Virus record (IMG/VR): IMGVR_UViG_3300044821_000052
Span: 1-55,891 of that record
From: a virus
Taxonomy: Duplodnaviria; Caudoviricetes
DNA length: 55,891 bases
Strand: one strand, 5' to 3'
Part shown: positions 23,375-46,290 of the stretch, in pieces
Layout: every line of letters begins with the position of its first letter
How positions within the stretch are numbered: the stretch's first letter is position 1
Notes under the pieces: model-generated
Database searches by the model: none
Seen by the model: only the letters and a program-made list of their open reading frames with translations
What the model was told of the DNA's origin: nothing
Translations under genes and position numbers: made by a program

Positions 23375-23814
23375 TAAGCATCACCACCTTGTGCAAATGG
23401 GATGTACATGCCGGTTGGACCTTGCGGACCTGGCTCACCCGTAAGTCCTTCTGGACCGGGTATTCCTTGCAAGCCTTGTACGCCTTGCGGTCCTTGGGAC
23501 TGGTGAAATACTAAGAGGTGTCGGTCAAATGTGTCGTTCAGTTGTCTCATGTCACGACTTAGCGTATTGATTGCATCACGCATACTGCCACCACCATTAG
23601 GTTGCATCTGCGCCTCTATTGCACCAAGACGCTCCATTGCGCCTGGTTCACGACCACGACCAGGGCGTGCTGCTCGCCCATACCAGTCTTCGCGGAATTC
23701 ATCATTTTGTCTTGACAAGCGTCGTAGTGGTTTGCCGACTAGTATTCCGACTGCGATCGCGCAGGATATGACTGATGCGACGGCACTGATAGCAACCCAT
23801 GTGGTTGCGTTCAT
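23374..23814 (-). CDS. Membrane protein of lysis cassette with collagen-like tail
   Basis: N-terminal TM helix; PNGGGSMRDAI motif; ~9 Gly-X-Y triplets. Confidence 0.7.
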   Translation of the reverse strand: MNATTWVAISAVASVISCAIAVGILVGKPLRRLSRQNDEFREDWYGRAARPGRGREPGAMERLGAIEAQMQPNGGGSMRDAINTLSRDMRQLNDTFDRHLLVFHQSQGPQGVQGLQGIPGPEGLTGEPGPQGPTGMYIPFAQGGDA

Positions 23815-24439: not shown

Positions 24440-24898
24440 TTACGACAGATATGGACCTACGTCGCATTTATCCGCAGTGCAGTGCACATTAGTGTCATCA
24501 AGTGCACGCTTGCATCGTCGGCACTTCGTCGACACGCCATCGTACCCTTTATCAATACGTGTGTAATCAATACGAAGTTTTGACATCAATGTTGTATGCA
24601 TTGCACCTGCAATGAATTCAGGTGTCATGTCTGGAAGTGCAGCGAACCACATATTCGTGATGAACTGCCATGTATCACTGAGTTCACAGACGAATGCAGC
24701 AGCACCAAATTGAGCATCACCAGCTGCCCATGACTTCCAAGATACTTCACTAAGTGCTTCACCAAGTTCTTGCACTGCAGCGATGTACATCTCTTTCACG
24801 TATGCAATGCGATCTCTATCATTCATTGCCGTGAAATCATGGCCTAGTTTGTCTTGGAATTGACGTTGTGCCTCAACCATTTCAGCAAGACGATCCAT
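24440..24898 (-). CDS. All-alpha (dimeric dUTPase/MazG-like) nucleotide pyrophosphatase
   Basis: QELGEAL..WKSW..ELSD..F. Confidence 0.8.
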   Translation of the reverse strand: MDRLAEMVEAQRQFQDKLGHDFTAMNDRDRIAYVKEMYIAAVQELGEALSEVSWKSWAAGDAQFGAAAFVCELSDTWQFITNMWFAALPDMTPEFIAGAMHTTLMSKLRIDYTRIDKGYDGVSTKCRRCKRALDDTNVHCTADKCDVGPYLS

Positions 24899-30082: not shown

Positions 30083-30541
30083 CTATTCTACTACTCTCAA
30101 AAGTTCTGCGACGACGCTGGGTCGAAACGTCAGCAACGTCACAAGGACATGCCGTGCAGCATCGTTGGCATGTCCATGCTTTGGTGTATACAGACTGATT
30201 CGTCGCAATGTGTCATTCTTGAATCGTGCGGCTGTCGATGCTGATTGTATATCAACAGTGACCTTGTACTTTACACCAAGACTTTGCACACTGCCGATGA
30301 TCTGACTAGCTGCAGGTTGACGAGACTTCTTATGCGTGTTGGCTAAGATCGCATAACGTTGTATGCCAATGAATGTCTCATATCGGCTAAAATCACGTTG
30401 CTTGAGCAAGCCCTCAACAAATGGCTCAACATCAACCTGCTCAAGTTCATGTGTCTCGAATGATGTTGCAGTCCACACAGCAATGCCTGTCATCTTACCA
30501 GGATCAATACCAATGACACATAGGATCTTATGTTGCGTCAA
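30083..30541 (-). CDS. RuvC-like Holliday junction resolvase
   Basis: IGIDPGKMTG, HANDAARH; probable TTG start overlapping the end of the polymerase gene. Confidence 0.75.
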   Translation of the reverse strand: MTQHKILCVIGIDPGKMTGIAVWTATSFETHELEQVDVEPFVEGLLKQRDFSRYETFIGIQRYAILANTHKKSRQPAASQIIGSVQSLGVKYKVTVDIQSASTAARFKNDTLRRISLYTPKHGHANDAARHVLVTLLTFRPSVVAELLRVVE

Positions 30542-32348
30542 ACTTCCACTCTTCCTTTGCGCCCCAGCGCTGGCCGTATGACATGGACGCAGTAATCGGC
30601 ACGAGATATGTGGTGAGATCATTCATGACGCTGTGAATTGTCTGCACTGCAGCATCAAGATGCTCATTGGGTATATCAAGCACGATCTCATCATGCACAG
30701 GCATCATCATATACGGTCCTAGCCCAGCAGCATCAAGTTCAAGTAGCTTAGACTTGAAGATCTCAGCAGCAGAGCCCTGGATGAGATAATTGATCAATGC
30801 GTAGATCTTGTTGGTATCTGCAACGTGATGGCGACCAGTTACGGGGCTTGGAAAGTACGGAACACCCGTTTCTCGCTGGGCATTCCACGCGAATGATTCG
30901 ACCTGCTTAGTAAACCGCTTGGTTCCAGAATATAGTTGATTCCATCTGGCCTTGATGACAGATGCTTGCTCGGTGGGGATGCCTGCAGTTTCAGCGAACT
31001 TCGCAACACCTGCACCGTAGATTTCTGAGTAGCCGGCATTCTTGGTGATCTGACGGCGAGGGTCACCCTTAACAATACTTGAATCATCAAAGATTTGACG
31101 TGCAAGGTCAACAAAGAAGTCACCACCAGATGCATGTGCATTGTTGAATGCAGCGACCAACCCAGGGTCACGTGAAATGTGCGCAAGCAGACGCATTTCA
31201 ATCTGATCAAAATCACACATCAGCATGGTGTGCCCTGGCCGTGCAGTGATGCAGTTACGTACGACTTCCGCAGCCTTGTTCTTTTCACTCTTGCGTGGAA
31301 GCGTCTGAAACCCTGGGTCTGTGATGGTCATACGGCCTGTGCGAGTGCCCATAGGGTTAATGTTCGGATGGATCAGATGGTTGCTGTCATGCTCGTTCAG
31401 GAAGTGCTTAAGGTACGTGCTGGTCAGCTTCTGAAGCCGACGACGTTGCAACACAGTCTTTGCCAGTGGATGATCAATACCCTGCAGCACATCACTGTCA
31501 AGTGCAAGCTTGCCACCAGGAGTTTGCTTGCTGAAGTCATAACCTTCAGACTGCAAAATCTCAATAATGGCATCGTTCGACCCAGCGCGACACTGATAGT
31601 TTGTCTTGACCCATGCATCTGCATTCGCAATATATTCAAGGAACTGATTGTACTTCTCGGCAGTGTAGTCGACATCGACATGCGCGCCATATCGCATCAT
31701 GGCAAGCGTGACCCACTGGGTTGACAGTTCAAGCTCATATGACTTAGCAACACCCAGTGATTTGATCAATGGGGCATGGTGGTCATAGAGATGCACGGTC
31801 AACACTGGGTCAAGTGCACCATAGGTCCAGTATGGTTCAAAGTTGACGGGTACAGTGTCCCAACCCCAACCACCATGCTTAATTGCCTTATCAAGCGTGG
31901 TCATTCCTGCTGCAGCGTTCTCATCGATCCATCGTGAGCACTGATTCTTCAATGCCTTAGACACGTTCGGTTCAAGAACGTGACTCATTGTCATTGTGTC
32001 ATGAATGAGATGGATCGGAACTATGACGCCAGCTGCCGCAAGTTTGGGTTGGTCAAATGGTGCATTGTGGAAGACAAATGTGTTGCCATCAGTATCAGAC
32101 CAGTTGTTGGTGATCTGCTTGCACAAACCACGCCAGTCCTCGAATGGAATGGCCCAACCATGCTCATGTCCGCCTACCTGAAATAGACGAATCTTAGCAT
32201 CATGTTCCAACCCAGTGGTTTCAGTGTCAATGCCCATGACACCTTCGAGATCACGTGACCCCATCCATCTCATCAGGTCGCATGCTGCATCGAAGTTGTC
32301 GACCAGATGAAGTTGAAGGGAGTCAGGCAATCCACTACGCTGGGTCAT
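30528..32348 (-). CDS. Family A DNA polymerase with 3'-5' exonuclease
   Basis: DTETTGL, HNAPFD, DFDQIEMR, RQITKNAGYSEIYG, NYLIQG, PVHDE. Confidence 0.95.
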   Translation of the reverse strand: MTQRSGLPDSLQLHLVDNFDAACDLMRWMGSRDLEGVMGIDTETTGLEHDAKIRLFQVGGHEHGWAIPFEDWRGLCKQITNNWSDTDGNTFVFHNAPFDQPKLAAAGVIVPIHLIHDTMTMSHVLEPNVSKALKNQCSRWIDENAAAGMTTLDKAIKHGGWGWDTVPVNFEPYWTYGALDPVLTVHLYDHHAPLIKSLGVAKSYELELSTQWVTLAMMRYGAHVDVDYTAEKYNQFLEYIANADAWVKTNYQCRAGSNDAIIEILQSEGYDFSKQTPGGKLALDSDVLQGIDHPLAKTVLQRRRLQKLTSTYLKHFLNEHDSNHLIHPNINPMGTRTGRMTITDPGFQTLPRKSEKNKAAEVVRNCITARPGHTMLMCDFDQIEMRLLAHISRDPGLVAAFNNAHASGGDFFVDLARQIFDDSSIVKGDPRRQITKNAGYSEIYGAGVAKFAETAGIPTEQASVIKARWNQLYSGTKRFTKQVESFAWNAQRETGVPYFPSPVTGRHHVADTNKIYALINYLIQGSAAEIFKSKLLELDAAGLGPYMMMPVHDEIVLDIPNEHLDAAVQTIHSVMNDLTTYLVPITASMSYGQRWGAKEEWKFDAT

Positions 32349-32778
32349 ATGGTACTATGTCCTTCACTATGAGACACTCGATGCCTGCTGCTTGCAAGAC
32401 GGAAAGACCTTCGCTGTTCTGATATGCCGTCGCCGCCACAACATGGTTGATGCCGGCTGTAACGATAAGCATCGCACATACCCTGCACGGAACCATGGTC
32501 GAGTAAAGTACCGAATTTTCGATTGCCACCCCTCGACGTGCAGCCGATACAAGGGCGTTCTGCTCGGCATGTACGGTGCGAAAACAGTGGCCACGGACCA
32601 TCTGGTGGCCCACGACGTCACAGTGCGGAAACCCGGGCGGCGATCCGACATACCCCGTCGCAAGTATCTGGCGGTCGAGAACAAGAATCGCACCTGAGCG
32701 ACCACGATTGCAGGTGGCCCGCTGGGCGACGGCATCCAGCATCTGAATGAAGTATTCATCCCATGTCACCCGTGTCAT
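32335..32778 (-). CDS. dCMP deaminase family
   Basis: RATC.R..GA, HAEQNA, PCRVC. Confidence 0.92.
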   Translation of the reverse strand: MTRVTWDEYFIQMLDAVAQRATCNRGRSGAILVLDRQILATGYVGSPPGFPHCDVVGHQMVRGHCFRTVHAEQNALVSAARRGVAIENSVLYSTMVPCRVCAMLIVTAGINHVVAATAYQNSEGLSVLQAAGIECLIVKDIVPYDPA

Positions 32779-33629
32779 CTGCGCTCATCTCTGAACGGTG
32801 CAAGTTCGTTGAAGTACCACTGTGCACCGACGTATCCCAGTCGCAGATCATCGCATGTCTGATCATAAACAATGTCATGCGCACGCAGTCGCATCTCTGA
32901 CACGAGGTCACCAGGTCGTGCCAGACCTTTCGGCTGGTCTGGTGCGCCCTTTGGCGCACGAAGTTGCGTCAATAGCGATTCGTGCTGCGCATAGAGATGG
33001 AATGACCATGCCGTGTGCCGGTACTTCCCAGTCTTCACACCTAGGATTGTTGCCACGGTATGCTGCAACTGGGTGAACTGGAAGATATCATACGGTGTAC
33101 CCAGCCACACATCGTTCGACCGCATTAAGGTATTCAGTTCCAGAACTGGCTGGCCTTGGTTTACCAGTCGGAATCCCAGTGAAACGGTGCAGGGATAGTC
33201 CCGCTTTGCACCTAGTGCAGAATCCTTCTTCGGATCCCACAACGTGATGACTGCTTGCCGTGTATCTGGGTCACGACGTAACTTGTTGACGACATCGTTC
33301 AACTGATCGCCGATGCGATCACCATAGGCGCCATGGAAGGTTCCGTCGTCCTCCTGGAACGCTCTGAATGCGTCACTGGACCAGACCGTCAGGGCAGGAT
33401 CTCCGAAGCCTCCGATAAGCTGGATGGCTTCTGCTGCGGCGATATGCGAGTTGACTCGACGTCCGCATCCGATAGGTAGAGCGTTATCCGCGGATTTGAA
33501 TACGAGAGTGGTCGGACCAAGGTCCCACGTAGTCTGACCACGAGGAGCACACTGCTGTCCTCTGTCTCGCACAAGTTGCGGCAGCTTCCAGTAATCTTCA
33601 AACCCAGTCCGTAGTTGGATGATCTCCAC
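32775..33629 (-). CDS. Thymidylate-synthase-superfamily enzyme (pyrimidine hydroxymethylase/methylase-like)
   Basis: DTRQA, DYPCT, MRSNDVWLGTPYD, HTAWSFHLY. Confidence 0.88.
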   Translation of the reverse strand: MEIIQLRTGFEDYWKLPQLVRDRGQQCAPRGQTTWDLGPTTLVFKSADNALPIGCGRRVNSHIAAAEAIQLIGGFGDPALTVWSSDAFRAFQEDDGTFHGAYGDRIGDQLNDVVNKLRRDPDTRQAVITLWDPKKDSALGAKRDYPCTVSLGFRLVNQGQPVLELNTLMRSNDVWLGTPYDIFQFTQLQHTVATILGVKTGKYRHTAWSFHLYAQHESLLTQLRAPKGAPDQPKGLARPGDLVSEMRLRAHDIVYDQTCDDLRLGYVGAQWYFNELAPFRDERR

Positions 33630-34180
33630 TAGTCGTGGTCACTCCCCATCGTGCGTCCAATTTCATGCCTACGCGCAATTCGTATGATATTCATGATGTC
33701 AAAGTCATCAACTTGCTTGCTATACCGCAGTACTGGAAGCATCGACTGCCTGATAACAAAGTCGTACCCAGCGATGATCTCACGCAATTGATGTGGTGCA
33801 ATGAGATCATCACCACGTGCTGTCAATCGCGCAATGAGAAGTGGAAGTGGTGGTTCCATATAGATGACAATGGCACCCAGGTTGCATAGGAATGTCTCAA
33901 TGTGCTGAGACACTGCATGTGACCAGCGAGTGTGTCTGCCCAGCACGTTTGGATACACCGCTTCTCCGAGGTGCCAGCGATCACAAATGACAGTCCGCTG
34001 GGTGCCTGGCTGATAGTCTTGAAGTGGTGTTTCATACTCGTCAAATGGATGCTTCGTTGGTGGCCCTGCATGTAGAATGTCAAGCTTCTCATCCGGTGAA
34101 TGCGCTAGAACTGCATCCATAAGACGTTTCACCAGTGTTGACTTGCCAGCGCCGTCAGGTCCTTCGACGATGATGAGCAT
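33629..34180 (-). CDS. dNMP kinase (thymidylate-kinase-like)
   Basis: IIVEGPDGAGKST, DRWHLGE.VY, RGDD. Confidence 0.85.
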   Translation of the reverse strand: MLIIVEGPDGAGKSTLVKRLMDAVLAHSPDEKLDILHAGPPTKHPFDEYETPLQDYQPGTQRTVICDRWHLGEAVYPNVLGRHTRWSHAVSQHIETFLCNLGAIVIYMEPPLPLLIARLTARGDDLIAPHQLREIIAGYDFVIRQSMLPVLRYSKQVDDFDIMNIIRIARRHEIGRTMGSDHD

Positions 34181-35420: not shown

Positions 35421-35629
35421 GCGTTCCTCCAAAATCTCGTTTTTCTCATATGTAAGATTCGTTTAATAATACCATGTTGCGTTTCCACTGGCGTGGGATC
35501 CATTTACGTGACTATGTATAATTAAGTTCTCTGCACGTCAATTGGCACATCAATTGGTACATACTGTAACATTTGGACACTGATTGTTACTTGACTGTTA
35601 CAAGATGTGAGATTAATGAGAGGAAACAT

Positions 35630-38131
35630 ATGCCAAATGACGTTCGTTTTGATGTAGCGAAGGATTACATCGAACGTGGTTGGAAGGTGATGCTTCTTGC
35701 TACAGATCGCACTGGCGGCAAGATTCCACCTAAGAATTGTGCACGTTGTAACTTTCGCCAAGGTGCTGAGCGGCATGACATGGAGGCATGTGATTGCTTA
35801 TTGTGTCATGGCTTCCATATGGCAACAGGTGATCTTGACCGCTTCGTACTGATGCTTGCAGCACTGCCACATGGTTCACTTGCTATTCGGACTGGTCAAG
35901 CATCACGCATCTTGGTCATTGATGCTGAGGCACATGGCGACGGTGACGGTGACACTGGTATTGATGTTATCACAGCTTGGGAGGCACACACCCAGCTGAG
36001 CACTGGACTGCCTGAGACATTGCGTGCGCGATCAGTATCTGGTGGATTGCATCTCTATTATGCGCTCCCGCCAAACGTCTACATTACGAGTGGACGAATC
36101 CTGCCGTTTGTTGATGTCAAAGCAGAGTTGGGATATGTCGGCGCGCCAGGTGTTGGTACGCGTGAGTGGTTGAACCCAGGCACTCCAGTTGCAGAACTAC
36201 CAAATGAGATTATTAAGTGGTTGACACGAGGGAAGCGACAAGGATACCGCGGACGTGGTGCTGGTACTGGTGCTGTTGGCGTTGGTGGTAGTGGTGCCAG
36301 TGGGATGTCGCGTCCTGAGGGTTATGACTTTGAGTTGTTCTCACGTGATGGTGCGCCTCGAGGATATCGCGATTACTTCATCAATGACGCGATTTTTCGT
36401 CTTCGCAAGCGAGGTGTGACTGGTCCTGCATTGGAAGAGCAGGCGTTTGAGCATTGGACGCGATTTGACCAGTCAGATGGCGAATTCCCTTGGGAAGACG
36501 TCAAATACAAAGTTGATCGCGTTGAACATGAGGTCATACCAGACGTTGATGCTGCGGAGACGTCAGGATACAGCTCCTGGATTGCGCGCCTAGGTAAACC
36601 TACTAAAAAGGGGTTTTCGGAGCCCAGCGGAGGAATGGGAGCGCCAGAACGGCCCGCTGGGCTGGGATCCGGGCCTGCGTTTGCTAACCAGCCGCCGGCG
36701 TTCGAGGTTGAGCTCACGCCGACTGGTAATGCACATCGATTCGTGAATTTGTTTCGTGAATCAACGCTGTACGTCCCAGGACTTGGTTGGCATGTCTGGC
36801 GTGGGAATGTGTGGCAGTACGACGAATTGAATGATGTCTTGGACATGACACATGAAGTGCTATTGCAACTTCGTCAAGAACAAGCGATGTTCGAGGCATC
36901 AGACGATGACCAAGCAGATCGTATTCGTGCTTGGTATGTCGCTTCATCAAGTGCTGGTGCACGGCAATCAATGTTGGAGCTCGCGGCATCTGACCCTCGT
37001 GTCAAAGTTTCAGCGAATGCACTGGACGCAGATCCGTGGACGTTAGTCGTCAAAAATGGAACAATTGATCTGCGCACGCGCAAGCACCGTGTGTCGGAGC
37101 CATCGGATTTCAACACGCGAGTTGCCAATGTGCTATATGACCCAGCGGCTGAATGCCCTCGCTGGCTGGAGCACATGAAGTTGGTATCTCAGTCAGCAAC
37201 TGGTGAGATTGACTGGTCCTGGATCGCGTTCGTGCAGCGTTGGATGGGTTACACGCTGACTGGGATTGTTGACGCGCAGAAGTTCTTCTTTGGTTTCGGC
37301 GGTGGCAACAATGGCAAGAATGTCATGATCGAAACATTGTTGGAGATCATGGGTGAGTACGGCATTCGTGGATCATCGAAGTTGTTGCAAGGCTCGGGGC
37401 AAGAACATGAAACGGTTATTGCAGACCTTGCTGGAATTCGTATGGCCTTCATCGACGAAACACCCAGTGGTCGGATCAATGAGTCTCGAGTGAAAGAGTT
37501 GACAGGATCATCTAAGGTTCGAGCACGAAAAATTGCGAAAGATTCATTTGAGTTCTCAATGCAGGCCAAGTTGTGGATTGCTGGTAATAACAAGCCGCGG
37601 GTGTCTGACTCATCAGATGGGTTCTGGCGTCGGTTAGACCTTGTGCCATTTGATGCAGTCATCCCAACAGATCAACGGATCACTAACTACATGCAGGTGT
37701 TGTTGGAAGAATCTTCAGGCATTTTGAATTGGTGTCTTGAAGGTCTGGCTGGGTATCTGGAGTTGGGTGGTCTTGGGTCACCACAACGTGTCGTCGATAT
37801 GGGTCAGACATATCGAGAAGATGAGAATGTCTTGGAATTGTTCCTAGCAGACACTTTCGCAACTGATGGTTCAACCCAGTGGTTGCCGAATAGCGTGATT
37901 CATGGAATGTATACGGAGTGGTGTGAGTCACAAGGTGTTAAAGAGATTCGATCAATGATTTCACTTGGTATGGACTTTCAACGTGCTGGATTAGTACGTG
38001 ATCCAGTAACACGTCGAATTAGATGGGTTTGGCAGGGCAAGACTCAAGTAGTACGTGGATGGATTTGCCCAGGGTTATTGAATAACATTTCTGAAATGCT
38101 TCGGTTTGAACGAACTGATGGTGGTAAATAA
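35630..38131 (+). CDS. Prim-pol primase fused to D5/P4-type SF3 helicase
   Basis: LVIDAE, SGGLHLYY; GGGNNGKN, FIDE, GNNKP, GFWRR. Confidence 0.92.
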   Translation: MPNDVRFDVAKDYIERGWKVMLLATDRTGGKIPPKNCARCNFRQGAERHDMEACDCLLCHGFHMATGDLDRFVLMLAALPHGSLAIRTGQASRILVIDAEAHGDGDGDTGIDVITAWEAHTQLSTGLPETLRARSVSGGLHLYYALPPNVYITSGRILPFVDVKAELGYVGAPGVGTREWLNPGTPVAELPNEIIKWLTRGKRQGYRGRGAGTGAVGVGGSGASGMSRPEGYDFELFSRDGAPRGYRDYFINDAIFRLRKRGVTGPALEEQAFEHWTRFDQSDGEFPWEDVKYKVDRVEHEVIPDVDAAETSGYSSWIARLGKPTKKGFSEPSGGMGAPERPAGLGSGPAFANQPPAFEVELTPTGNAHRFVNLFRESTLYVPGLGWHVWRGNVWQYDELNDVLDMTHEVLLQLRQEQAMFEASDDDQADRIRAWYVASSSAGARQSMLELAASDPRVKVSANALDADPWTLVVKNGTIDLRTRKHRVSEPSDFNTRVANVLYDPAAECPRWLEHMKLVSQSATGEIDWSWIAFVQRWMGYTLTGIVDAQKFFFGFGGGNNGKNVMIETLLEIMGEYGIRGSSKLLQGSGQEHETVIADLAGIRMAFIDETPSGRINESRVKELTGSSKVRARKIAKDSFEFSMQAKLWIAGNNKPRVSDSSDGFWRRLDLVPFDAVIPTDQRITNYMQVLLEESSGILNWCLEGLAGYLELGGLGSPQRVVDMGQTYREDENVLELFLADTFATDGSTQWLPNSVIHGMYTEWCESQGVKEIRSMISLGMDFQRAGLVRDPVTRRIRWVWQGKTQVVRGWICPGLLNNISEMLRFERTDGGK

Positions 38132-38185
38132 CTTGTGAGTTGTTGGTTGCACAGTGCATTATAACAGCTAGATATAGATGAGAAT

Positions 38186-38480
38186 CTAAGATGTTACAAC
38201 AGGTGTTACAAGATCATAAGCATCCTGACTATAGGAAATAAAGATCATGTAACAACTGTAACACCTGTAACACCTTAATGTCGGTCCGTGCGCACCATGG
38301 CGCGCAGGTATGTGATGCGCACGCTCGCACATGTGCACCCACACACATGCGCTCACACACATCGCACCATGCATGCATTGACGGTGGCAACAAGGCGTTA
38401 CAAGTGTTACGCCGTTTCATGATCTTTATTTCCTAAGGTCAGGGCATGTTTGATCTTGTAACGCTTGTTGAAACGCCTAG
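38186..38480. repeat. ~90-bp imperfect inverted repeat with GTTAC/GTAAC iterons; candidate replication origin
   Basis: Arms 38186-38276 and 38392-38480; perfect 18-bp core 38232-38249/38418-38435. Confidence 0.8.
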
Positions 38481-38574
38481 TGGCGGCTAGATGTTACAAG
38501 CTCCTAGTGTCGACTAGATTATTGCTATTTGCAGTTGATGTGATCACTGAACGTAGTTGAAAGTAGTTGAACGC

Positions 38575-39303
38575 ATGTCTCGAGATGACAAGCGACGCGC
38601 AGACGCGCGTGCCACTGTGGAGAAGCAAGAAAGGGAAAGGGAGGAAAAAAAGAGAAGAGAGGGAGGAAAAGAGGAAGGAAATGACACACGTTTGAGCTGT
38701 GGAACGCCGACGACTGACCGTGAGGGTAAACCCGCTGGGCCATGTCCGCAAAAAGCAGGTGCCCGAACGGATCACGTAGGATTTGGACGCTGTGCTTCGC
38801 ATGGCGGTAACTCGGTGTATGAGACTGCGAGAGGAGCCTGGCTCATGGCACACGCGCTGGGTCGTGAGCTGGATATCAGTCCCTGGGATGCGCTGCTGGG
38901 TACTGTGCGACGAGCGGCAGCCAGATCAGCATGGTGGCATGACCAGCTGGGCCAGTGTGCGGGCGAGAATGAAGACTTCTTGCCAGGTGGACAACACTAC
39001 CCGATCATGCGAGAACTTGAGAAAGCCGATGACTTTCTTGCGAAGACGTCTAACATCGCCATCAAGGCTGGCATCGCAGAGAAGCTAGTACTAGCAACAC
39101 AGGTGCAAGCTACAGAACTCTTCACTGTGATGATGCAAGCGTTGGAGTCAGCTCAACTCAACGAAGAACAAATGACAGCGGTACGTGGTAAATTAAGGAT
39201 CGGATTGCTTGCACTTGAGAGTGGACCTGTGCCGAACGAGATTGAAGGCGAAGCAATCGCTAAGCAAATAGCGAATGTTGATGAAGAAGGTGAATCATCA
39301 TGA
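38575..39303 (+). CDS. Probable terminase small subunit
   Basis: CG..C...AG..T.H.G.GRC..HGG motif; first late gene; start uncertain. Confidence 0.65.
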   Translation: MSRDDKRRADARATVEKQEREREEKKRREGGKEEGNDTRLSCGTPTTDREGKPAGPCPQKAGARTDHVGFGRCASHGGNSVYETARGAWLMAHALGRELDISPWDALLGTVRRAAARSAWWHDQLGQCAGENEDFLPGGQHYPIMRELEKADDFLAKTSNIAIKAGIAEKLVLATQVQATELFTVMMQALESAQLNEEQMTAVRGKLRIGLLALESGPVPNEIEGEAIAKQIANVDEEGESS

Positions 39304-39623
39304 CAGAGATAGATGAAGCTACGCCTCTGTACACGTACATCTTCACGTTCGGTTACGACCACATGCACCCAGTCACGGGTGAACCACTACGTAACCGATA
39401 CCTTGCGGTCACTGCTGCATCAGGTAATCATGCACGCGCCTTAGTGCTAAATCACTTTGACAACAATTGGTCGTTCCAATACAACTCTGCTAAGGCAGCA
39501 GGCGTCGATCGATTTCTGCTAGTGCTACTGCCGTATGAGGATTGGCCGCCATGCACCGGTACCTGGCGAGTTGTCGACGGTGCAGTCGTTGATGACGCAA
39601 TGATCAACGCAGGAGAGATGTAG
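39300..39623 (+). CDS. Hypothetical protein
   Basis: YIFTFG.DH.HP..WSFQY; coupled to previous stop. Confidence 0.65.
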   Translation: MTEIDEATPLYTYIFTFGYDHMHPVTGEPLRNRYLAVTAASGNHARALVLNHFDNNWSFQYNSAKAAGVDRFLLVLLPYEDWPPCTGTWRVVDGAVVDDAMINAGEM

Positions 39624-39628
39624 AGACA

Positions 39629-40342
39629 ATGAGTGGCAACATCGTCATCCTTGTTCCTACGCGTAAGCGTGCGCGATCCATCGTTCCATTGGCACGAGCA
39701 TTTGCTAACACTGTCACTGGCCTAATGGGCAGTGTGTGGTTGATGCTATGTGTAGATGGCAACGACAATCATGAATACAAGGATGTATACAACGAGGCAG
39801 TTGAGATTTACCCACACATGATGATAGGTACAGGTCCACGTCGAGGACTCGTCGGTACGCTCAACTATTACTCTGCACGAATGATACGACCAGAGATTCG
39901 TGCCATCGGATATATGGGCGACGATCACCGACCTATGACACAGGGTTGGGACGAACAGGTTCATGCTGCACTGGACGCCATGCAGGGCATGGGAATCGTG
40001 TATGGCGATGATGGCATTCAACACGAGACACTGCCAACTGCATGTGTAATCAGCACTCCCATCCTCATCCAGCTGGGTCACATGGCTCCGCCAGTGTTAC
40101 AGCACATGTACTGTGATAATTACTGGCGTGATCTGGGACTGGGCGCAAACTGTCTCATGTACTTGCCTGATATGAAGATCACACACTTGCATCCCAGTGT
40201 CGGTGCAGCCGACTGGGACGAGTCTTATCTTGAGTCGAATCACCCTGATATATTTGCTGCAGACAAACTGGCATATGAGAAGTACAAGCAGGATTTCTCA
40301 CTTGCTAGTGACATTGCCAAGATTTCAATACAAGGAAGATAA
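39629..40342 (+). CDS. GT-A glycosyltransferase
   Basis: ILVPTRKR, YMGDDH, HMYCDN, HLHP. Confidence 0.8.
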   Translation: MSGNIVILVPTRKRARSIVPLARAFANTVTGLMGSVWLMLCVDGNDNHEYKDVYNEAVEIYPHMMIGTGPRRGLVGTLNYYSARMIRPEIRAIGYMGDDHRPMTQGWDEQVHAALDAMQGMGIVYGDDGIQHETLPTACVISTPILIQLGHMAPPVLQHMYCDNYWRDLGLGANCLMYLPDMKITHLHPSVGAADWDESYLESNHPDIFAADKLAYEKYKQDFSLASDIAKISIQGR

Positions 40343-40350
40343 CGAGACTA

Positions 40351-41322
40351 ATGACACAAATCGTCAACATTGCGCGACGAGAACTGCACACAACTCCAGT
40401 TTTTGATACATATTGGCGATTTGCAGCTGCACGACAGCACATTTACGAATCTCGGCAAGCTGGCTTGCCAGCGCCATGGACTTCTGACCCAATTCTGCTA
40501 AATCATCGATTCACTAACTGCTTTCGTGCTGCAGATCGTGTGAGTCAGTTTCTCATTCGTGATGTGCTCTACACTGGGTCACAAGATCCGAAGGAAGTCG
40601 TCTTCAGATCACTTCTGTTTAGATTGTTCAATCGTGTGTCAACATGGCAATTGCTGACGTCGCATTTTGGCCAATTGACATACAAGAATGCTGACTTTGC
40701 TGCTTATGACGCTGTGTTGTCAAAGGCATTCGCAAATAAGCAACGCTTGTACTCGGCGGCGTACATCATCGCAACACCAGCATTTGGGCAGGAACGTCGA
40801 CACTCCAATCATGTGCAATTGTTGCGTTACATGATGGAAACACGAGTGCATGAACAATTGATGCATGCGACTGGCATGGAACATGCATTTCAGGTGCTAC
40901 TCCAGTATCCGTCTATTGGCAACTTTCTGGCATACCAGTTGCTTCTTGACATCAACTACAGCAATGTCATCGACTTTGATGAGAACGAATTCTCAATGCC
41001 TGGTCCAGGAGCACGTGACGGCATTCGTAAGTGTTTCGGTGCGGTTCCACGTGGCATTGAGGACCAAATACTTCAGTATATGGTTGATACGCAAGATGAG
41101 CATTTTGCCCGGCTGGGTTTGACGTTCAATGGACTAAATGGACGTCGATTGCATCTGACTGACTGCGAAAACTTGTTCTGCGAGACAGACAAATATGCAC
41201 GTATGGCACATCCTGAGATCGCAGGATTGTCAGGGCGTACGCGGATCAAGCAGAAGTACACACCAGACCCGAAGCCATTGCAAGCTTGGTTCCCACCCAA
41301 ATGGCGTATTAATACCATTTGA
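40351..41322 (+). CDS. 5-hmdU DNA kinase family (aGPT-Pplase1 / HMUDK helical domain)
   Basis: PWTSDPIL..RFTN.FR..DRVSQ, LFRLFN, YSAAY, IG.FLAYQ..D, GPGA..G, ENLFCE.DKY. Confidence 0.85.
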   Translation: MTQIVNIARRELHTTPVFDTYWRFAAARQHIYESRQAGLPAPWTSDPILLNHRFTNCFRAADRVSQFLIRDVLYTGSQDPKEVVFRSLLFRLFNRVSTWQLLTSHFGQLTYKNADFAAYDAVLSKAFANKQRLYSAAYIIATPAFGQERRHSNHVQLLRYMMETRVHEQLMHATGMEHAFQVLLQYPSIGNFLAYQLLLDINYSNVIDFDENEFSMPGPGARDGIRKCFGAVPRGIEDQILQYMVDTQDEHFARLGLTFNGLNGRRLHLTDCENLFCETDKYARMAHPEIAGLSGRTRIKQKYTPDPKPLQAWFPPKWRINTI

Positions 41323-41347
41323 TAATGATGCAAGGAGATATGAGACA

Positions 41348-41998
41348 ATGCCAGATATCGTCAAGTTGGCACCACAGGAGTCGTGGACGTTTGCACCTTT
41401 GCCTGAGTTCATGCGAGAGCACAGCATTATGCCAAGTGCAGTGGCGCACATTGGCGCGCATCATGGTGAAGAGGTTGACATCTACCATGAGTGCGGGTTC
41501 AAGACCATCTATCTCTACGAACCCGACCCGCGCAATCTCGAAGTCTTACGTTCCCGTGCAGTCAACGATCCCACGGTCAGTATCGTTGCTGCGGCGGTCA
41601 CTACGCGCTCCAAGGGGCCACAGCAGCTTCACCTCGCTGCACGCACGGTATGGAGCGGGCTTAGTCCGCACCCCACTGCAACCGGCGACACCGTCGTCGT
41701 TCCGACAGTTCCGATGTCACATCTGTCGTCACTGGTCAACGTACTAGTGCTAGACACGCAAGGCAGCGAGTACGAATTGCTACGTGCCGCTGACCTGAGC
41801 CTGCTTGACCTGGTCATCGTCGAGACAACACGACGTCGAGGTGACGGTGCTGCCTTCTACGAAGACGCGGTTGCTTACATGGAGGACTGCGACTGGGTGC
41901 CTGCCCAAGAGTGGGTCCACGACGACTCGGGATACACCGACACGGTCTTCATCAAGAACAACCGCCAGAAGTACCTACAGACGAAGGATGCCGCATGA
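41348..41998 (+). CDS. FkbM-family SAM methyltransferase
   Basis: HIGAHHGEE, YEPDP, LDTQGSE. Confidence 0.85.
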   Translation: MPDIVKLAPQESWTFAPLPEFMREHSIMPSAVAHIGAHHGEEVDIYHECGFKTIYLYEPDPRNLEVLRSRAVNDPTVSIVAAAVTTRSKGPQQLHLAARTVWSGLSPHPTATGDTVVVPTVPMSHLSSLVNVLVLDTQGSEYELLRAADLSLLDLVIVETTRRRGDGAAFYEDAVAYMEDCDWVPAQEWVHDDSGYTDTVFIKNNRQKYLQTKDAA

Positions 41999-42189
41999 CA
42001 TCACAGCGCATTAAAGGTGTTGCGGTTGGTGGATCTGTCACTATTGTCATGGGATCGATGTCGCCTATCGACTGGGATCCTGCTGCGGTTGACCCAGTGA
42101 AGTTCCTGTCTGATGTGTACACTGTCTTGGATGCTCCCATTGCGATGAACATGTTTGATGCCAACACGACATTCAAGAATGTGTCATGA
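41995..42189 (+). CDS. Small hypothetical protein
   Basis: ATGA overlap with methyltransferase stop. Confidence 0.45.
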   Translation: MTSQRIKGVAVGGSVTIVMGSMSPIDWDPAAVDPVKFLSDVYTVLDAPIAMNMFDANTTFKNVS

Positions 42190-42247
42190 CTAACCCAATC
42201 CCACGGCCACGTCCACCAGTTGACGAACTAGCTAGGAAGTGCCGCTC

Positions 42248-42346
42248 ATGAAGGCTAGCGTCATCCTCCTGGCCGTCGGCCTGGCACTCGTCTCGGCATC
42301 GCTTGCTGGGTCGCTTGTACTAGTACTCATAAAGTGGCTCAAATAG
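42248..42346 (+). CDS. 32-aa hydrophobic peptide
   Basis: MKASVILLAVGLALVSASLAGSLVLVLIKWLK translated by hand. Confidence 0.4.
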   Translation: MKASVILLAVGLALVSASLAGSLVLVLIKWLK

Positions 42347-42347
42347 T

Positions 42348-42491
42348 ATGGGCACAATACACATCTTCCGTAAGAAGCCTGTCATCATTGAAACAGTACA
42401 GTGGACTGGTGATAATTCCGCAGAACTGCATAGCTTCGCTGGGGCAGAGGCTGCGTTCACCACAGCAGTGTACAAGTTGAGAGACTTGTGA
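42348..42491 (+). pseudogene. Probably truncated member of the common phage RKKPV.IE..QW.G.N family
   Basis: MGTIHIFRKKPVIIETVQWTGDNSAEL.. stops at 47 aa. Confidence 0.45.
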
Positions 42492-42541
42492 TACAGTCAA
42501 CATCGAAGTTAACGACAAGAATGAGATTGAAGGAGCTAGAC

Positions 42542-42748
42542 ATGGACATCCACACACAGCAGGTTCCCGTGCAGCAGGTTCCCGTCCAGGTGCAGATGCA
42601 GCCGATGGTTGCATATACATACCAGCGCACCAACCATGCTAAGCACATCTTCTGGAGCTTCATGACCATTGGACTATGGGCCATGACAGGGTACCCCATC
42701 TGTGTTCTGCTTAACCGTCGTGCCCGTACACGCACTGTGATCCGGTAG
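42542..42748 (+). CDS. Small membrane protein
   Basis: AAGGAG RBS; QQVPV repeat; NH..H..W...T.GLW. Confidence 0.6.
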   Translation: MDIHTQQVPVQQVPVQVQMQPMVAYTYQRTNHAKHIFWSFMTIGLWAMTGYPICVLLNRRARTRTVIR

Positions 42749-42755
42749 CACCGAG

Positions 42756-43226
42756 ATGCAACCGCTACCGCAGCCCAACAACCAGCCCGCAATCGCCGAT
42801 CTCGTCATTGCCGACTTCGTCAAGCGCAAGCGGATCGACATCGAGCGCAGGATCGACCAGATGCGCGAACGGCGCGACCTTGCCGAAACGGCACTGTCGA
42901 TGATCCGCGGACTGGCTAACGAGCACGTCGAGCATGCCGACGGGTGCGGCCTGCTGGCCGGTCAGATCCTCGACATGCTCGCCGCCACGCCGCTCGGCGC
43001 CGGCTTGGTGCTGCCGCCAGCCGAAACTATCGCCCAACGCTTCCATGAGGCATACGAGCGCCTCGCTCCGATGTTTGGGTACCGCACTCGTGAGGCCAGC
43101 GCGAAGCCATGGGAGGACGTGCCGGCCGACAATCAGTTGTTGATGATCGCCACGGTCACCGAGGTTCGGGAGTGGCTGCTCGGTCTCGGCCGGCCACTGA
43201 CCGCGAAGGACCCCGCGAATGGCTGA
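42756..43226 (+). CDS. Hypothetical protein, GC-rich
   Basis: C-terminal AQRFHEAYERLAP.FGY.TR..SA.PW..VP block. Confidence 0.65.
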   Translation: MQPLPQPNNQPAIADLVIADFVKRKRIDIERRIDQMRERRDLAETALSMIRGLANEHVEHADGCGLLAGQILDMLAATPLGAGLVLPPAETIAQRFHEAYERLAPMFGYRTREASAKPWEDVPADNQLLMIATVTEVREWLLGLGRPLTAKDPANG

Positions 43227-43590
43227 GCCCACGTTGCGAGAGACAGTGCTGGCATACCTCGACGCTTATTGTAGCTTCCGCACGTACCACGTCGACGTGC
43301 GCGACCTGCCACCGCCGCCGATGTTCAGCGGTTACGTCGACCTGGCCGGAACGCACCACGTGTTGCACACGTCCGGTCGACCCGAGGTGACGGCGATCAG
43401 CCTGGAGTTGCTCGCGCTTCCCGATCTCATGTTCGGGTGGGATAAGCCGTACATCACGATGTCCGGCGAGCTGCGCTACGAACCGGTCGGACTGGACACC
43501 ACGGGCGAGTACGTGGTGTGTCGACACAGCCCCGGCGCCTTCGACCATGACGCGCTCGCCCCCAGGAAAACTGACGCGGTAACCACATGA
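43219..43590 (+). CDS. Hypothetical protein, GC-rich
   Basis: Overlaps both neighbours. Confidence 0.55.
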   Translation: MAEPTLRETVLAYLDAYCSFRTYHVDVRDLPPPPMFSGYVDLAGTHHVLHTSGRPEVTAISLELLALPDLMFGWDKPYITMSGELRYEPVGLDTTGEYVVCRHSPGAFDHDALAPRKTDAVTT

Positions 43591-45140
43591 CAGGATCACT
43601 GGGTCAACGTCCTGCAGTTCTTCGGCAACTCGTTGATCTGCTTGACCCACCTGACATGCAATTTCAGCGCGATCCAGTAGCATGGGCAGAAAGCAAGCAC
43701 AACCTTGAACTGTGGTCCAAGCAACGTGAGATTCTTGAAGCGGTGCGTGACCATAAGCAAGTTGCTGTACGTTCATGCCATGAAGTCGGTAAGTCCTGGA
43801 CAGCGTCATTAGTCGGATGCTGGTGGCTCTCAACACATGCACCTGGTGAAGCATTCGTCTTGACGACGGCACCTACGGACAAGCAGGTCAAGGCAATCCT
43901 TTGGCGCGAGATTAACCGTCTGCACTCAAGACTGGGTCTCATAGGCCGCACGAACCTCAGTGAATGGTACGTTGGTAAGGAACTGGTCGCATTCGGTCGT
44001 AAGCCAAATGACTACGATGCCACAGCATTCCAGGGCATCCATGCACGCTACATTTTGATCATTCTTGATGAAGCATGCGGCATTCCGACAGAACTGTGGG
44101 ATGCTGCTTCAACACTGGGTGCCAACGAGCATGCTCGCTTCTTGGCAATCGGTAATCCAGATGACGAACACTCTGAATTTGCCACGACAGTGAAGAGTCC
44201 TGACTGGCACAGCATTCGTATCTCATATTGGGATACACCGAACTTCACTGGTGAAGGCGTTAGCCAATCACTGAAAGATCTGCTTATCCACCCAGACTGG
44301 GTAGAAGAGCGTCGTCGCAAATGGGGCGATGGATCCGCTCTCTTCACATCAAAATGCACAGGTGAGTTCCCACACGGCACATCACCATTCGTGACGGTAC
44401 CCATCAGCTGGGCTGAGACATGCCGTCAACTTGAACTGCCACCAGGCTTGCCCATTGAGGCAGGCGTTGATGTTGGTGGCGGTGGCGACCGCACAATCGT
44501 GCGCATTCGTTATGGTGCTAAAGCTGGACCATCATACGAGTTCATTGATGCTGACCCAATGAAGACAGTTGGATTCATTGCTCTGAAATTGCAAGAGCAT
44601 GGTGTCACTAAGGTCAAGGTTGACAGCACAGGTATCGGTTGGGGCATCGCTGGTGCCTTGAAAGAATCTTCATCAAAGCACAATGCAGTATCAAGTGACC
44701 TTGGTGCTTTTCGTCATGATGCTGAAGTGTTGCCAGTTAACTTTGGCGCTGGGTCGACCCCTGGAACTGAAGGTCTCTATCTGAATAAGCGTGCTGAGTT
44801 GTGGTGGAGCATGCGTGAGTTGGTGCGTCTTCATCTGTGTGACCTCGAGGACGTCAATGACGACGCACTTCAAGAATTGACTACACCACTGTATGAGATT
44901 CTTGACAGTAAGGGCAAGATCAAGATTCAGCCAAAAGATGAGGTTATCAAGTTCCTAGGACGCTCACCAGACGAGGCAGATGCCCTAGTGCTGGCATACC
45001 ATCAAGTGGTCTCAGAAGGGTCTCTCGGTGTGCCTGAGGGCTTCGCAGACGTTGACCTGACACGGTCCGTTGAACCTGGCGACTGGACGCACACAGCACC
45101 AGACTGGCACAATGATGATCTCACACGCGTACGAATGTAA
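43587..45140 (+). CDS. terL: Terminase large subunit
   Basis: SCHEVGKS, ILDEA, IGNP, GVDVGGGGD, DSTGIG, RSPDEADA. Confidence 0.93.
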   Translation: MTGSLGQRPAVLRQLVDLLDPPDMQFQRDPVAWAESKHNLELWSKQREILEAVRDHKQVAVRSCHEVGKSWTASLVGCWWLSTHAPGEAFVLTTAPTDKQVKAILWREINRLHSRLGLIGRTNLSEWYVGKELVAFGRKPNDYDATAFQGIHARYILIILDEACGIPTELWDAASTLGANEHARFLAIGNPDDEHSEFATTVKSPDWHSIRISYWDTPNFTGEGVSQSLKDLLIHPDWVEERRRKWGDGSALFTSKCTGEFPHGTSPFVTVPISWAETCRQLELPPGLPIEAGVDVGGGGDRTIVRIRYGAKAGPSYEFIDADPMKTVGFIALKLQEHGVTKVKVDSTGIGWGIAGALKESSSKHNAVSSDLGAFRHDAEVLPVNFGAGSTPGTEGLYLNKRAELWWSMRELVRLHLCDLEDVNDDALQELTTPLYEILDSKGKIKIQPKDEVIKFLGRSPDEADALVLAYHQVVSEGSLGVPEGFADVDLTRSVEPGDWTHTAPDWHNDDLTRVRM

Positions 45141-45207: not shown

Positions 45208-46290
45208 ATGCGGTATCGACACTGGGTTGCATTCGTTACAGGCCTGCTTATCGTTGGCGTCGCTGCGATGCCGCAAGCATCGGCTAAAGCACGCACCATT
45301 GTAACGACCACTTCCTGTACACCTGGAGCGCATACTATGACTCGCTATCTCGCTGGTGTCGCTGTTGGTGGCTTACAACCATGGAACACTGAGCGTGCAG
45401 CAGATTATAAGGCGATGGCAAATGCCAATGCTACATGGATTCGTAGTGATCTGGCTTGGGAGTATCTAGAACCGTCACCAGGTAACTGGCAATGGGGGCT
45501 ATATGATCCAGTTGTGCAAGATGCAAAAGCAGTTGGGCTGAAGTATCTGGCGATCCTTCACACGGTGCCTGCTTGGGCGAATAGTGGCATCGGTGACTAT
45601 GGCATACCGAACGACACAACGAAGTATACGAACTACGCGTATCAAACGGTGAAGCATTACTTGCAACTGGGTGTCAACACCTACGAGATTGGCAACGAGG
45701 TCAATCTTACGCATCCTGGTTGGGCGCCAGATGGTGCATTCTACACAACGAATATGCTAATACCTATTGTTGATGGTGTTCGTCAAGCAGCGACCGAACT
45801 GGGTAAGTCAGTCACCATTATCATGGGATCGATGGCACCTACTGACTGGGATCCAGCTGGTGTTAATCAGTCGACGTTCCTGACTGACGTGTATACAACT
45901 CTTGCAGGTGTCGGATACTTTGATGCGATTGCCTGGCATCCATACACTGGTGCGGATAACCCAATGACTGGCGCGCAATTCGTACCAGACTCCGCTGCTC
46001 TTGCAACGATCATGTCAAGTCATGGTGATGGCGCTAAGAAGATCTGGGGCACTGAATATGGACAGGCCACAGGCGGGTCTAACTCGATTACTGAGCAAGC
46101 ACAAGCAATACTTGTAACACAAGCGTATAACACATGGTACGCACAATCATGGGCAGGTCCATTGTTCTGGTACGCAGGACGTGACACTGGCACAGATCTG
46201 ATTGACCGCGAACAGCATTTCGGATTGCTGCGATACAACGGTAGTCGTAAGCCTGCGTATTGTGCATTCCAAGCAATTGCAATGAGATAA
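45208..46290 (+). CDS. Secreted clan GH-A glycoside hydrolase (GH5/GH39-like)
   Basis: Signal peptide; WIRSDL.W, EIGNE, DAIAWHPY, IWGTEYG, FGLL..KPAY. Confidence 0.85.
   Translation: MRYRHWVAFVTGLLIVGVAAMPQASAKARTIVTTTSCTPGAHTMTRYLAGVAVGGLQPWNTERAADYKAMANANATWIRSDLAWEYLEPSPGNWQWGLYDPVVQDAKAVGLKYLAILHTVPAWANSGIGDYGIPNDTTKYTNYAYQTVKHYLQLGVNTYEIGNEVNLTHPGWAPDGAFYTTNMLIPIVDGVRQAATELGKSVTIIMGSMAPTDWDPAGVNQSTFLTDVYTTLAGVGYFDAIAWHPYTGADNPMTGAQFVPDSAALATIMSSHGDGAKKIWGTEYGQATGGSNSITEQAQAILVTQAYNTWYAQSWAGPLFWYAGRDTGTDLIDREQHFGLLRYNGSRKPAYCAFQAIAMR

Follow-up and report, generated by a model that had tools for sequence, protein, structure and literature searches.

The window analysed here, a viral contig of 55.9 kb taken at its full length (55,891 nt; IMG/VR record IMGVR_UViG_3300044821_000052; completeness estimate 74%), carries three closely spaced genes encoding a glycosyltransferase (GT), a protein of the Pfam family PF18723 and an FkbM-family methyltransferase, which had been proposed to form a cassette for DNA base hypermodification. 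Positions 1-17.6 kb hold tail genes and a GT block on the plus strand, 19-35 kb hold a replication and nucleotide-metabolism block on the minus strand, and a further plus-strand block starts with a PrimPol-D5 primase (35573-38131) and continues into packaging and head genes. The trio lies between this primase and a large open reading frame (ORF; 43587-45140) with no Pfam match, which we take to be the large terminase from its position and size. All three genes are on the plus strand, head to tail: a GT-A (GT2-like) glycosyltransferase of 237 amino acids (aa) recognized by its PHROG match and AlphaFold2 fold (39629-40342; hereinafter GT237), a 323-aa protein of the aGPT-Pplase clade 1 (40351-41322; PF18723 'HMUDK_hel', E=1.3e-111) and a 216-aa S-adenosylmethionine (SAM) methyltransferase of the FkbM family (41348-41998; PF05050, E=2.3e-9; longest ORF from 41195). 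The gaps between them are 8 nt and 25 nt, and a Shine-Dalgarno (SD)-like sequence precedes each gene, with AAGGAG ahead of the ATG at 41348. The ORFs and family assignments of the original prediction, which was made from the sequence alone, were thus confirmed at these coordinates; its description of them as late genes was not supported, and a promoter and terminator scan of 37900-43700 recovered sites no commoner than in shuffled sequence.

The 323-aa protein scores 372.9 bits with the PF18723 profile (cut-off 25), spanning positions 1-280 of its 281, and is 26% identical to the M6-type gp55 (AN14_14; E=2e-19). The public gene call of this ORF is of only 260 aa and misses about 60 N-terminal residues, which hold the homologue-invariant positions V17, F18, D19, Y21 and W22; judging from this conservation the start at 40351 appears to be the better one. 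The AlphaFold2 model of the protein (pLDDT 92.8) displays an all-helical helix-hairpin-helix (HhH) fold with no P-loop, i.e. the DNA-glycosylase-like fold that is common to the clade-2 transferases. Its best structural match in the PDB is PaMx11 gp46/PUGT (Z 10.9, root-mean-square deviation 3.6 Å, 218 residues), followed by QNG1, a queuine-salvage hydrolase with the DUF2419 domain (Z 10.6), and HhH DNA glycosylases (Z 7-9); for helical models a Z below about 13 does not settle the matter by itself, but the top match is the expected paralogue. PUGT is a glycinyltransferase acting on 5-phosphomethyldeoxyuridine (5-PmdU), with a catalytic ETxxC motif (PMC11472151), in which a metal-binding Glu/Thr stands close to the catalytic cysteine. 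The alignment of PF18723 homologues revealed an invariant C277-E278 in the signature 'LFCE(T/V)DKYAR', together with N274 and a GPGARDG hairpin. Comparison with hhalign placed the E273-N274..C277 stretch of this C-terminal cysteine motif on the ETVLC of M6 gp51, at a non-significant E of 0.62, and a search of the PF18723 profile against PDB sequences recovered nothing better than E=0.35. The amino acid:DNA transferases (AADTs; also aGPT-Pplase2 or PUGT, e.g. PaMx11 gp46, M6 gp51 and ViI gp247) are thus the closest structural relatives of the window protein, from which it differs in having no PF18724 match and in the absence from the window of a kinase to supply a phosphorylated substrate. A complex prediction for the 323-aa protein with GT237 scored 0.01, which gives no answer either way.

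It had been claimed that this family phosphorylates 5-hydroxymethyldeoxyuridine (5-hmdU) in DNA, and this proved to be wrong. The proven 5-hmdU DNA kinases (5-HMUDKs) are P-loop proteins, reported as M6 gp54, PaMx11 gp49, SP10 gp186, ViI gp67/gp243 and PhiW-14 gp37, and the group transferases are listed alongside as 'aGPT-Pplase2' (PMC8989533). AN14, an M6-type phage, has its genes arranged as AADT, pyridoxal-phosphate enzyme, radical SAM enzyme, 'thymidylate kinase' and 'aGPT-Pplase clade 1'; the kinase (AN14_13) matches PF18748, the transferase PF18724 (ADDT) and AN14_14 PF18723. The kinases are therefore PF18748 proteins, and PF18723 is the family of M6 gp55 and ViI gp160. Moreover, lysates with M6 gp54 and gp51 are described as sufficient for the formation of Nalpha-glycinylthymidine (Nalpha-GlyT) without gp52, gp53 or gp55, and ViI gp160 does not figure in the protein table of the same 2021 paper (PMC8989533). 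As the mechanism first put forward rests on the family name, it falls with this assignment. The Pfam name 'HMUDK_hel' itself agrees with fusions such as SP10 gp186, where PF18748 and PF18723 occur in a single 653-aa frame, in agreement with the gp186N/gp186C entry in Table 3 of Lee 2018. A viral locus (L008:6269-7963) encodes a second, independent fusion of a kinase to clade 1, a 564-aa protein whose dTMP-kinase-like domain belongs to a different kinase family; a divergent thymidylate synthase (TS)-like gene precedes it and a radical SAM enzyme follows it. Taken together, sequence and model comparisons indicate that PF18723 represents the old aGPT-Pplase clade 1 (the M6 gp55 family) and not the P-loop kinase PF18748, and that the window protein is an uncharacterised paralogue of the AADTs. 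The aGPT-Pplase clades were reportedly defined by Iyer et al. in 2013; a literature search by family names turned up no functional study of PF18723 or clade 1, and the 2024 and 2026 structural papers in Nucleic Acids Research do not mention this clade.

The case of SP10 offers a clue to what clade 1 might do. A profile search with positive controls recovered no PF18724 match in SP10, and its DNA is reported to contain glutamyl-thymidine (PMC8989533); because of this conjunction clade 1 may itself be a group transferase. In PhiJL001 gp19 (AY576273.1 12757-13086) a sub-threshold match to ADDT PF18724 (7.8e-4, profile 131-227) was observed inside the PF18723 gene, which would be consistent with homology of the clades in their catalytic C-terminal region. 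The clade-1 proteins of the thymidine-hypermodifying phages (M6 gp55, ViI gp160, PhiW-14 gp72 and the C-terminal half of SP10 gp186) belong to the same full-length Pfam family as the window protein, but are only 21-26% identical to it; its nearest relatives, which are actinobacterial, reach 60-70% identity. These phages and the window have in common a TS-type hydroxymethylase, a dCMP deaminase and a Pol A. Unlike them, the window has a cytosine-type TS signature (see below), and no match to PF18748 (at E<=10) or PF18724 (at E<=1) was found in it; the PF18748 search detects M6-type AN14, ViI-like sal1 and SP10, and the PF18724 search likewise had controls. The original statement that no AADT is recognizable here thus stands, whereas the phosphorylated hydroxymethyl-pyrimidine that it invoked has no step to make it: as no kinase of the 5-HMUDK family was found in the window, there is no route to such a base.

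The precursor genes that had been noted elsewhere in the window are all present, on the minus strand. They encode a thymidylate-kinase-like P-loop kinase of 183 aa (33629-34180; phrog_761 'thymidylate kinase', 2e-17), a TS homologue (32775-33629; PF00303, 6.5e-23), a dCMP deaminase (32335-32778; PF00383, 1.7e-21), a family A DNA polymerase with a 3'-5' exonuclease domain (30528-32348; PF00476, 5.2e-61; PF01612, 6.8e-9) and a dUTPase_2/MazG-like nucleoside triphosphate (NTP) pyrophosphohydrolase (24440-24898; PF08761, 1.8e-6; phrog_18650 dUTPase, 2.9e-17). The PF18723 gene accordingly has a companion of the TS-type hydroxymethylase family, 6.7 kb away on the opposite strand. In ThyA (E. coli numbering) an Asn at position 177 is described as specifying uracil and an Asp cytosine, a bulky hydrophobic residue at position 143 a methyl product and an acidic one a hydroxymethyl product, and an Asn at position 169 as marking 5-hydroxy-dCMP synthases (PMC13326640). 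Residues 143/146/147/169/177 are D/C/T/D/D, the cytosine type, in the window, T4 gp42, the Actinomycetia phage DSL-LC01, Neferthena and Pherbot; D/C/N/D/N, the uracil hydroxymethylase type, in M6 and PaMx11, which are proven 5-hmdU phages, and in LuckyBarnes and PhiJL001; and L/C/H/D/N in the thymidylate synthase ThyA of E. coli. The window residues D143, C146, T147, D169 and D177 were identical in two independent alignments, and among PDB sequences the protein matches the CMP hydroxymethylase MilA best (2.3e-16). Given the residues shared with T4 gp42 and the match to MilA, the predicted base is fairly likely to be 5-hydroxymethyldeoxycytidine (5-hmdC) and not 5-hmdU, although a later deamination is possible; the dCMP-hydroxymethylase signature thereby speaks against the 5-hmdU assumed at the outset, with 5-hydroxymethylcytosine (hmC) to be expected instead. 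The situation is reminiscent of the hmC pathway of T4, which comprises the dCMP hydroxymethylase gp42, the dNMP kinase gp1, the deaminase Cd, the dCTPase gp56 and DNA glucosyltransferases. The window TS homologue shares D143, T147, D169 and D177 with gp42, and a kinase, a deaminase and an NTP pyrophosphatase are likewise present. It differs in that the TS homologue is only 17% identical to gp42 and PF18723 has no T4 counterpart; no T4-type GT-B DNA glucosyltransferase was recognized in the window.

The kinase of this block was considered for two further roles and rejected for both. As a 5-HMUDK, its BLASTP alignment with the M6 enzyme covers only the Walker A stretch and it has no PF18748 match; nor does it belong to the family of kinases that are fused or adjacent to PF18723 in the L008 and L007 viral loci and in actinobacteria. 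Similarly, the small P-loop kinases of Pherbot, Neferthena and the window showed no significant similarity to the family of the L008-fused kinase. It is homologous to a kinase of DSL-LC01 (E=5e-14), a phage that shares with the window the order kinase, TS, deaminase, Pol A and has no PF18723. As the homologue sits in a syntenic block without PF18723, the simpler reading is that the window enzyme is probably a dNMP kinase for the modified nucleotide. DSL-LC01 also has (L175:16912-18657), just after its replication genes, a GT beside a UDP-galactopyranose mutase, a pair that resembles the DNA-glycosylation clusters described for the Rhizobium phage RL38JI (PMC13326640).

GT237 has no Pfam match even at E<=1, but is recovered by phrog_14945 'glycosyltransferase' (4.1e-41). 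Its AlphaFold2 model (pLDDT 94.3) adopts a GT-A/GT2 fold, with WrtF, SpsA, RmlT and TarP as the top Foldseek matches (E 1e-8 to 1e-6, probability 1.00), and the conserved motifs of the family are SRGRP, VDxDD, GDDH (D98, D99, H100) and HxHP (H186, H188). The Rossmann-like fold and the invariant acidic G97-D98-D99-H100 motif are those of a GT-A enzyme. A relationship to the TAGT family of DNA glycosyltransferases was tried and rejected, as PF20691 gave no match anywhere in the window at E<=10 and BLASTP against the two LuckyBarnes TAGTs gave E values of 3.8 and 88. The FkbM ORF matches PF05050 with 38 bits (cut-off 22.7), and the alignment with its homologues, which are annotated as FkbM, starts at the Met at 41348, so that the protein has 216 aa; its 38 close homologues, 41-62% identical for all except one, constitute a small family. 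Five further consecutive GT genes (14084-17652, plus strand; GT2, Glyco_tranf_2_5, GT2, GT2 and GT-B, recognized by Pfam and PHROGs) directly follow the tail genes, so that the window has six GTs with GT237. Two of the GT2 proteins are 39% identical paralogues (15396-16555), and one of these has a weak match to a LuckyBarnes TAGT (E=5e-4, 81 aa aligned). The GT-B (16552-17652) has homologues in 7 of the 80 examined viral loci of GT237 relatives, in 4 of them directly adjacent to the GT237 homologue, and the five-GT block is a probable partner of a glycan module formed by GT237 and FkbM.

To place the trio in its wider context, gene neighbourhoods were compared from the side of each of its members. 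The PF18723 homologues found number 6357, the family occurs in 503 phage records, and 80 genome, 7 viral and 80 metagenome loci (167 in all) were examined; for GT237 the best 80 of at least 580 viral loci were screened for PF18723 by both tblastn and hidden Markov model (HMM), together with 20 viral records taken whole that encode a GT237 homologue (at least 90% complete in 16 cases); and for FkbM the 5 closest viral loci were compared with 38 others (<=31% identity). The trio was seen in none of the 167 PF18723 loci, and neither a GT237 nor an FkbM homologue was found in the genome (0/80), viral (0/7) or metagenome (0/80) sets; reciprocally, no PF18723 was recovered by either method in the 80 GT237 loci, or PF18723 or PF00303 in the whole records (0/20 each), and a blastn search with the trio recovered nothing from 50,697 phage records. 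Co-occurrence of the GT and FkbM genes with PF18723 in relatives, on which the original prediction had partly staked itself, was thus not found. Tet_JBP is present in 2 of the 20 whole GT237 records, more than 40 kb from the GT, and the other 18 have neither a TS homologue nor Tet_JBP; for this reason the usual acceptor of the GT237 family cannot be a hydroxymethylated base.

The closest relatives of the PF18723 protein (56-70% identity) are encoded by chromosomes of Actinomycetota or by high-GC metagenome contigs. The 80 actinobacterial loci contain MazG+MazG_C (67), IrrE/M78 (49), a divergent TS-like gene (48), an Xre helix-turn-helix gene (36) and a dTMP-kinase-like gene (13), and the 80 metagenome loci a TS-like gene (49) and MazG (40). 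With TS-type hydroxymethylases, small P-loop kinases and MazG as its partners, PF18723 is, on this contextual evidence, linked to hydroxymethyl-pyrimidine synthesis. A papain-like (Peptidase_C1) gene lies near PF18723 in 21 of the 80 actinobacterial and 14 of the 80 metagenome loci (e.g. L014:8928-9629). The GC content of the window gene (47%) is like that of the phage (52%) and unlike that of the bacterial relatives (65%), because of which it is a long-term resident rather than a recent capture. Among the viral PF18723 loci, a 235-aa ORF upstream of PF18723 in L007 was compared with GT237 as a possible relative, with a negative result, and a Pfam scan of the neighbours in L009, L011 and L008 recovered no GT, with most ORFs lacking any match; the same scan did detect a sulfotransferase, along with a radical SAM enzyme. 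The sulfotransferase-family gene (L011:4564-5478) is 1.5 kb upstream from PF18723; the record, a complete viral one of 60.5 kb, also holds ADDT and a weak PF18748 match, and the gene could point to a sulfated thymidine hypermodification.

The GT and FkbM genes have a history of their own. The GT237 homologue is followed by an NAD-dependent sugar epimerase gene in 57 of the 80 loci; genes for the capsid, prohead protease and portal are situated upstream at a distance of a few kb, and other GT2 genes are in the vicinity. The only one of these loci with an FkbM homologue is L094. A GT237 homologue adjoins the FkbM gene in all 5 of the closest viral FkbM loci, none of which holds PF18723; the other 38 FkbM loci have neither. 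In L094, L179 and L180 the order is clamp loader, GT, FkbM and, further on, a Mu-type portal, with a 4-nt GT/FkbM overlap in L094; in L181 and L182 a capsid gene is followed at some distance by GT2, FkbM and GT. Since the pair recurs in other phage lineages without PF18723, GT+FkbM is a genuine two-gene module, and the PF18723 gene of the window sits inside it. GT and methyltransferase genes of most GT237 relatives, like the five-GT block of the window, lie within head or tail modules, whereas the window trio and the L094 lineage are located at the border of replication and packaging genes. Just upstream of the GT-FkbM pair, the L094 (471-5844)/L180 lineage has a Peptidase_C1 gene in the company of a ThyX-like gene and of one for a 989-aa radical SAM protein. 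Upstream of GT2-FkbM-GT in L181 (200-2302) there is a fusion of a phage protein of the VG15 type with an ADP-ribosyltransferase exoenzyme domain.

Several cultured phages display a comparable association of PF18723 with a different type of GT. PhiJL001 encodes PF18723 (gp19), a TAGT (gp22; 4e-55) and a TS (gp24); the Brevibacterium phage LuckyBarnes has a TS, two TAGTs and PF18723 in succession with overlapping gene ends; and the Microbacterium phage Neferthena has a TAGT-like gp47, the TS gp50 and the PF18723 protein gp55 within 4 kb. Neither PF18748 nor PF18724 was found in these three phages. As in the window, PF18723 occurs within about 2.2 kb of a GT, together with a TS homologue and without the kinase, and Neferthena also shares the cytosine-type TS signature of the window, as does Pherbot. 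The differences are that their GT is a TAGT (PF20691), which is unrelated to GT237, and that there is no adjacent FkbM; Pherbot and a Nodularia phage, like the window, have PF18723 without a TAGT. Thus, an architecture of kinase-less PF18723, GT and hydroxymethylase recurs across phages. The suggestion that glycosylation takes the place of the amino-acid branch finds a real parallel in these three phages.

The reading that we prefer, to which we would give about an even chance, is that the locus is a mosaic of an AADT-like enzyme linked to hydroxymethyl-pyrimidines and a glycan module (the GT-A, FkbM and the GT block) that is likelier to act on virion proteins. The family and fold assignments, absences, neighbourhood statistics and TS signature given above are observations, and beside them we infer the following substrates and chemical steps. 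The phage would probably replace cytosine with hmC. The HhH enzyme of the first unit (40351-41322) would flip a 5-hydroxymethyl-pyrimidine out of the phage DNA, whereupon its invariant C277 might, like PUGT, use a C6-attack chemistry to act on the C5 substituent. The second unit (39629-40342 and 41348-41998), with the five-GT block, would build and O-methylate a glycan, which family-level evidence suggests is most likely placed on virion proteins. The PF18723 gene would have been inserted between the GT and FkbM genes of an existing pair. For the second unit there is a precedent of arrangement in the mycobacteriophage Corndog, where an O-methyltransferase and GTs situated between the genes for portal and protease were proposed to modify the capsid (PMC4351075). 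The window likewise combines a methyltransferase with several GTs, and relatives of GT237 lie beside capsid, protease and portal genes; however, PF18723 interrupts its pair, which is located ahead of the packaging genes, and the likeness is one of arrangement.

A number of observations weigh against this mosaic. The trio is co-directional, with its short gaps (8 and 25 nt) and separate SD-like sequences, and hence compatible with co-function. PF18723 lies near TAGT and TS genes in three cultured phages that have neither PF18748 nor PF18724, and because of these clusters a partnership of PF18723 with a GT acting on DNA is plausible; in the window the adjacent GT is GT237, which by position is the candidate DNA GT. 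Further, if the phage makes hmC as predicted, one would anticipate that it also glycosylates this base, and GT237 apart, none of the window's six GTs was recognized as a DNA GT. Among the GT+FkbM lineages, the closest (L094/L179/L180) has the pair behind replication genes (clamp loader) and not behind capsid genes, and we know of no member of the GT237 family for which virion glycosylation has been shown. The equivalence of C277 with the catalytic cysteine of PUGT rests on the hhalign comparison (E 0.62), and the contig being about 74% complete, a missing kinase or transferase could lie outside the window.

Several of these points lead to the alternative of a single integrated pathway, in which Pol A would incorporate 5-hmdC (or 5-hmdU after deamination), GT237 would glycosylate its hydroxymethyl group in the DNA and FkbM would O-methylate the sugar, with the PF18723 protein assisting by base flipping or targeting, or adding a second substituent, as it perhaps also does beside TAGT in PhiJL001, LuckyBarnes and Neferthena. 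The tight spacing of the three genes, the predicted hmC pathway with its kinase, deaminase and NTP pyrophosphatase, and the combination of PF18723, TAGT and TS-hydroxymethylase without PF18748 or PF18724 in three cultured phages of different lineages are in its favor. The proven DNA-modifying GT-A enzymes of phages are, moreover, described as TarP-like GT2 folds, often found with epimerases (Pyle et al., preprint), and the GT237 family is likewise TarP-like and paired with epimerases. Yet GT237 is not a TAGT, at least two other lineages have the GT+FkbM pair but not PF18723, 18 of 20 whole GT237 records have neither TS homologue nor Tet_JBP, and the trio recurs in no relative, making this pathway possible but doubtful. 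We regard as unlikely, too, a more specific cytosine counterpart of thymidine hypermodification, in which the clade-1 aGPT-Pplase would act on hmC without a DNA kinase, with the GT-A of the window glycosylating, and FkbM O-methylating, its product or hmC itself.

At the other extreme, the PF18723 gene might be a captured bacterial nucleotide-modification or defence-island gene whose substrate is free nucleotides, or else the DNA of the host or of competitors, e.g. as a QNG1-like hydrolase or as a glycosylase-like factor in counter-defence or superinfection exclusion, and does not decorate phage DNA, with the GT and FkbM as unrelated neighbours. This would accord with the closest relatives (56-70%) being actinobacterial or from high-GC metagenomes with the same MazG and TS-like neighbours, with the kinase and Xre/IrrE genes also contained in the bacterial islands, and with the near tie of QNG1/DUF2419 and PUGT in the fold comparison (Z 10.6 versus 10.9). 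In addition, the combination of aGPT-Pplase with MazG and MazG-C figures in DefensePredictor among the defence systems that are predicted but unvalidated (PMC13092281). We nevertheless consider it improbable, as the GC content of the gene (47%, against 52% in the phage and 65% in the relatives) is that of a long-term resident, PF18723 is fused to a DNA kinase in SP10, and genes for thymidine hypermodification of DNA accompany it in all characterised phages that have it. Far less probable still is the original scheme taken literally, wherein the 323-aa protein would phosphorylate 5-hmdU in DNA and a sugar would replace or extend the phosphate before being methylated. The Pfam name of PF18723 and the lack of PF18724 in the window are its supports; against these, the confident model of the protein shows no kinase fold, with or without a P-loop, PF18748, the family of the proven kinases, was not found in the window, the reactions sufficient for Nalpha-GlyT did not contain M6 gp55, and the TS signature predicts hmC and not hmU.

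The new feature is the architecture itself, which joins a clade-1 aGPT-Pplase, without kinase or AADT, to a cytosine-type hydroxymethylase and to FkbM beside a GT that is not a TAGT. A misreading of PF18723 as a kinase is prompted by its Pfam label, '5-hmdU DNA kinase, helical domain'. The function of clade 1 could be tested in cultured phages, as PF18723 recurs without 5-HMUDK or AADT beside DNA glycosyltransferases, occurs with both uracil-type and cytosine-type hydroxymethylases, and is the sole transferase-like domain in SP10, the reported maker of glutamyl-thymidine. If the integrated pathway were true, it would yield a new methylated glycosyl base, with a bearing on restriction evasion and enzymatic DNA labelling. 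The cytosine counterpart would span the phages with dCMP hydroxymethylases, i.e. the window and Microbacterium phages such as Neferthena and Pherbot, and would imply a methylated glycosyl-hydroxymethylcytosine, so far undescribed in any DNA, and, in the window, the recruitment of a capsid-type GT-A.

Two further regions of the window deserve mention. Directly after the putative large terminase ORF lies a 360-aa ORF (45208-46290, plus strand) with weak matches to Glyco_hydro_42 (4e-4) and cellulase (0.01), both below the Pfam cut-offs. On the minus strand (22472-23814) a protein with an Rv2525c-like glycoside-hydrolase domain, a domain associated with lysins, adjoins a protein with a weak collagen-repeat match. 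The Rv2525c-like protein, together with the module synteny with the Actinomycetia phage DSL-LC01, hints at an actinobacterial host.

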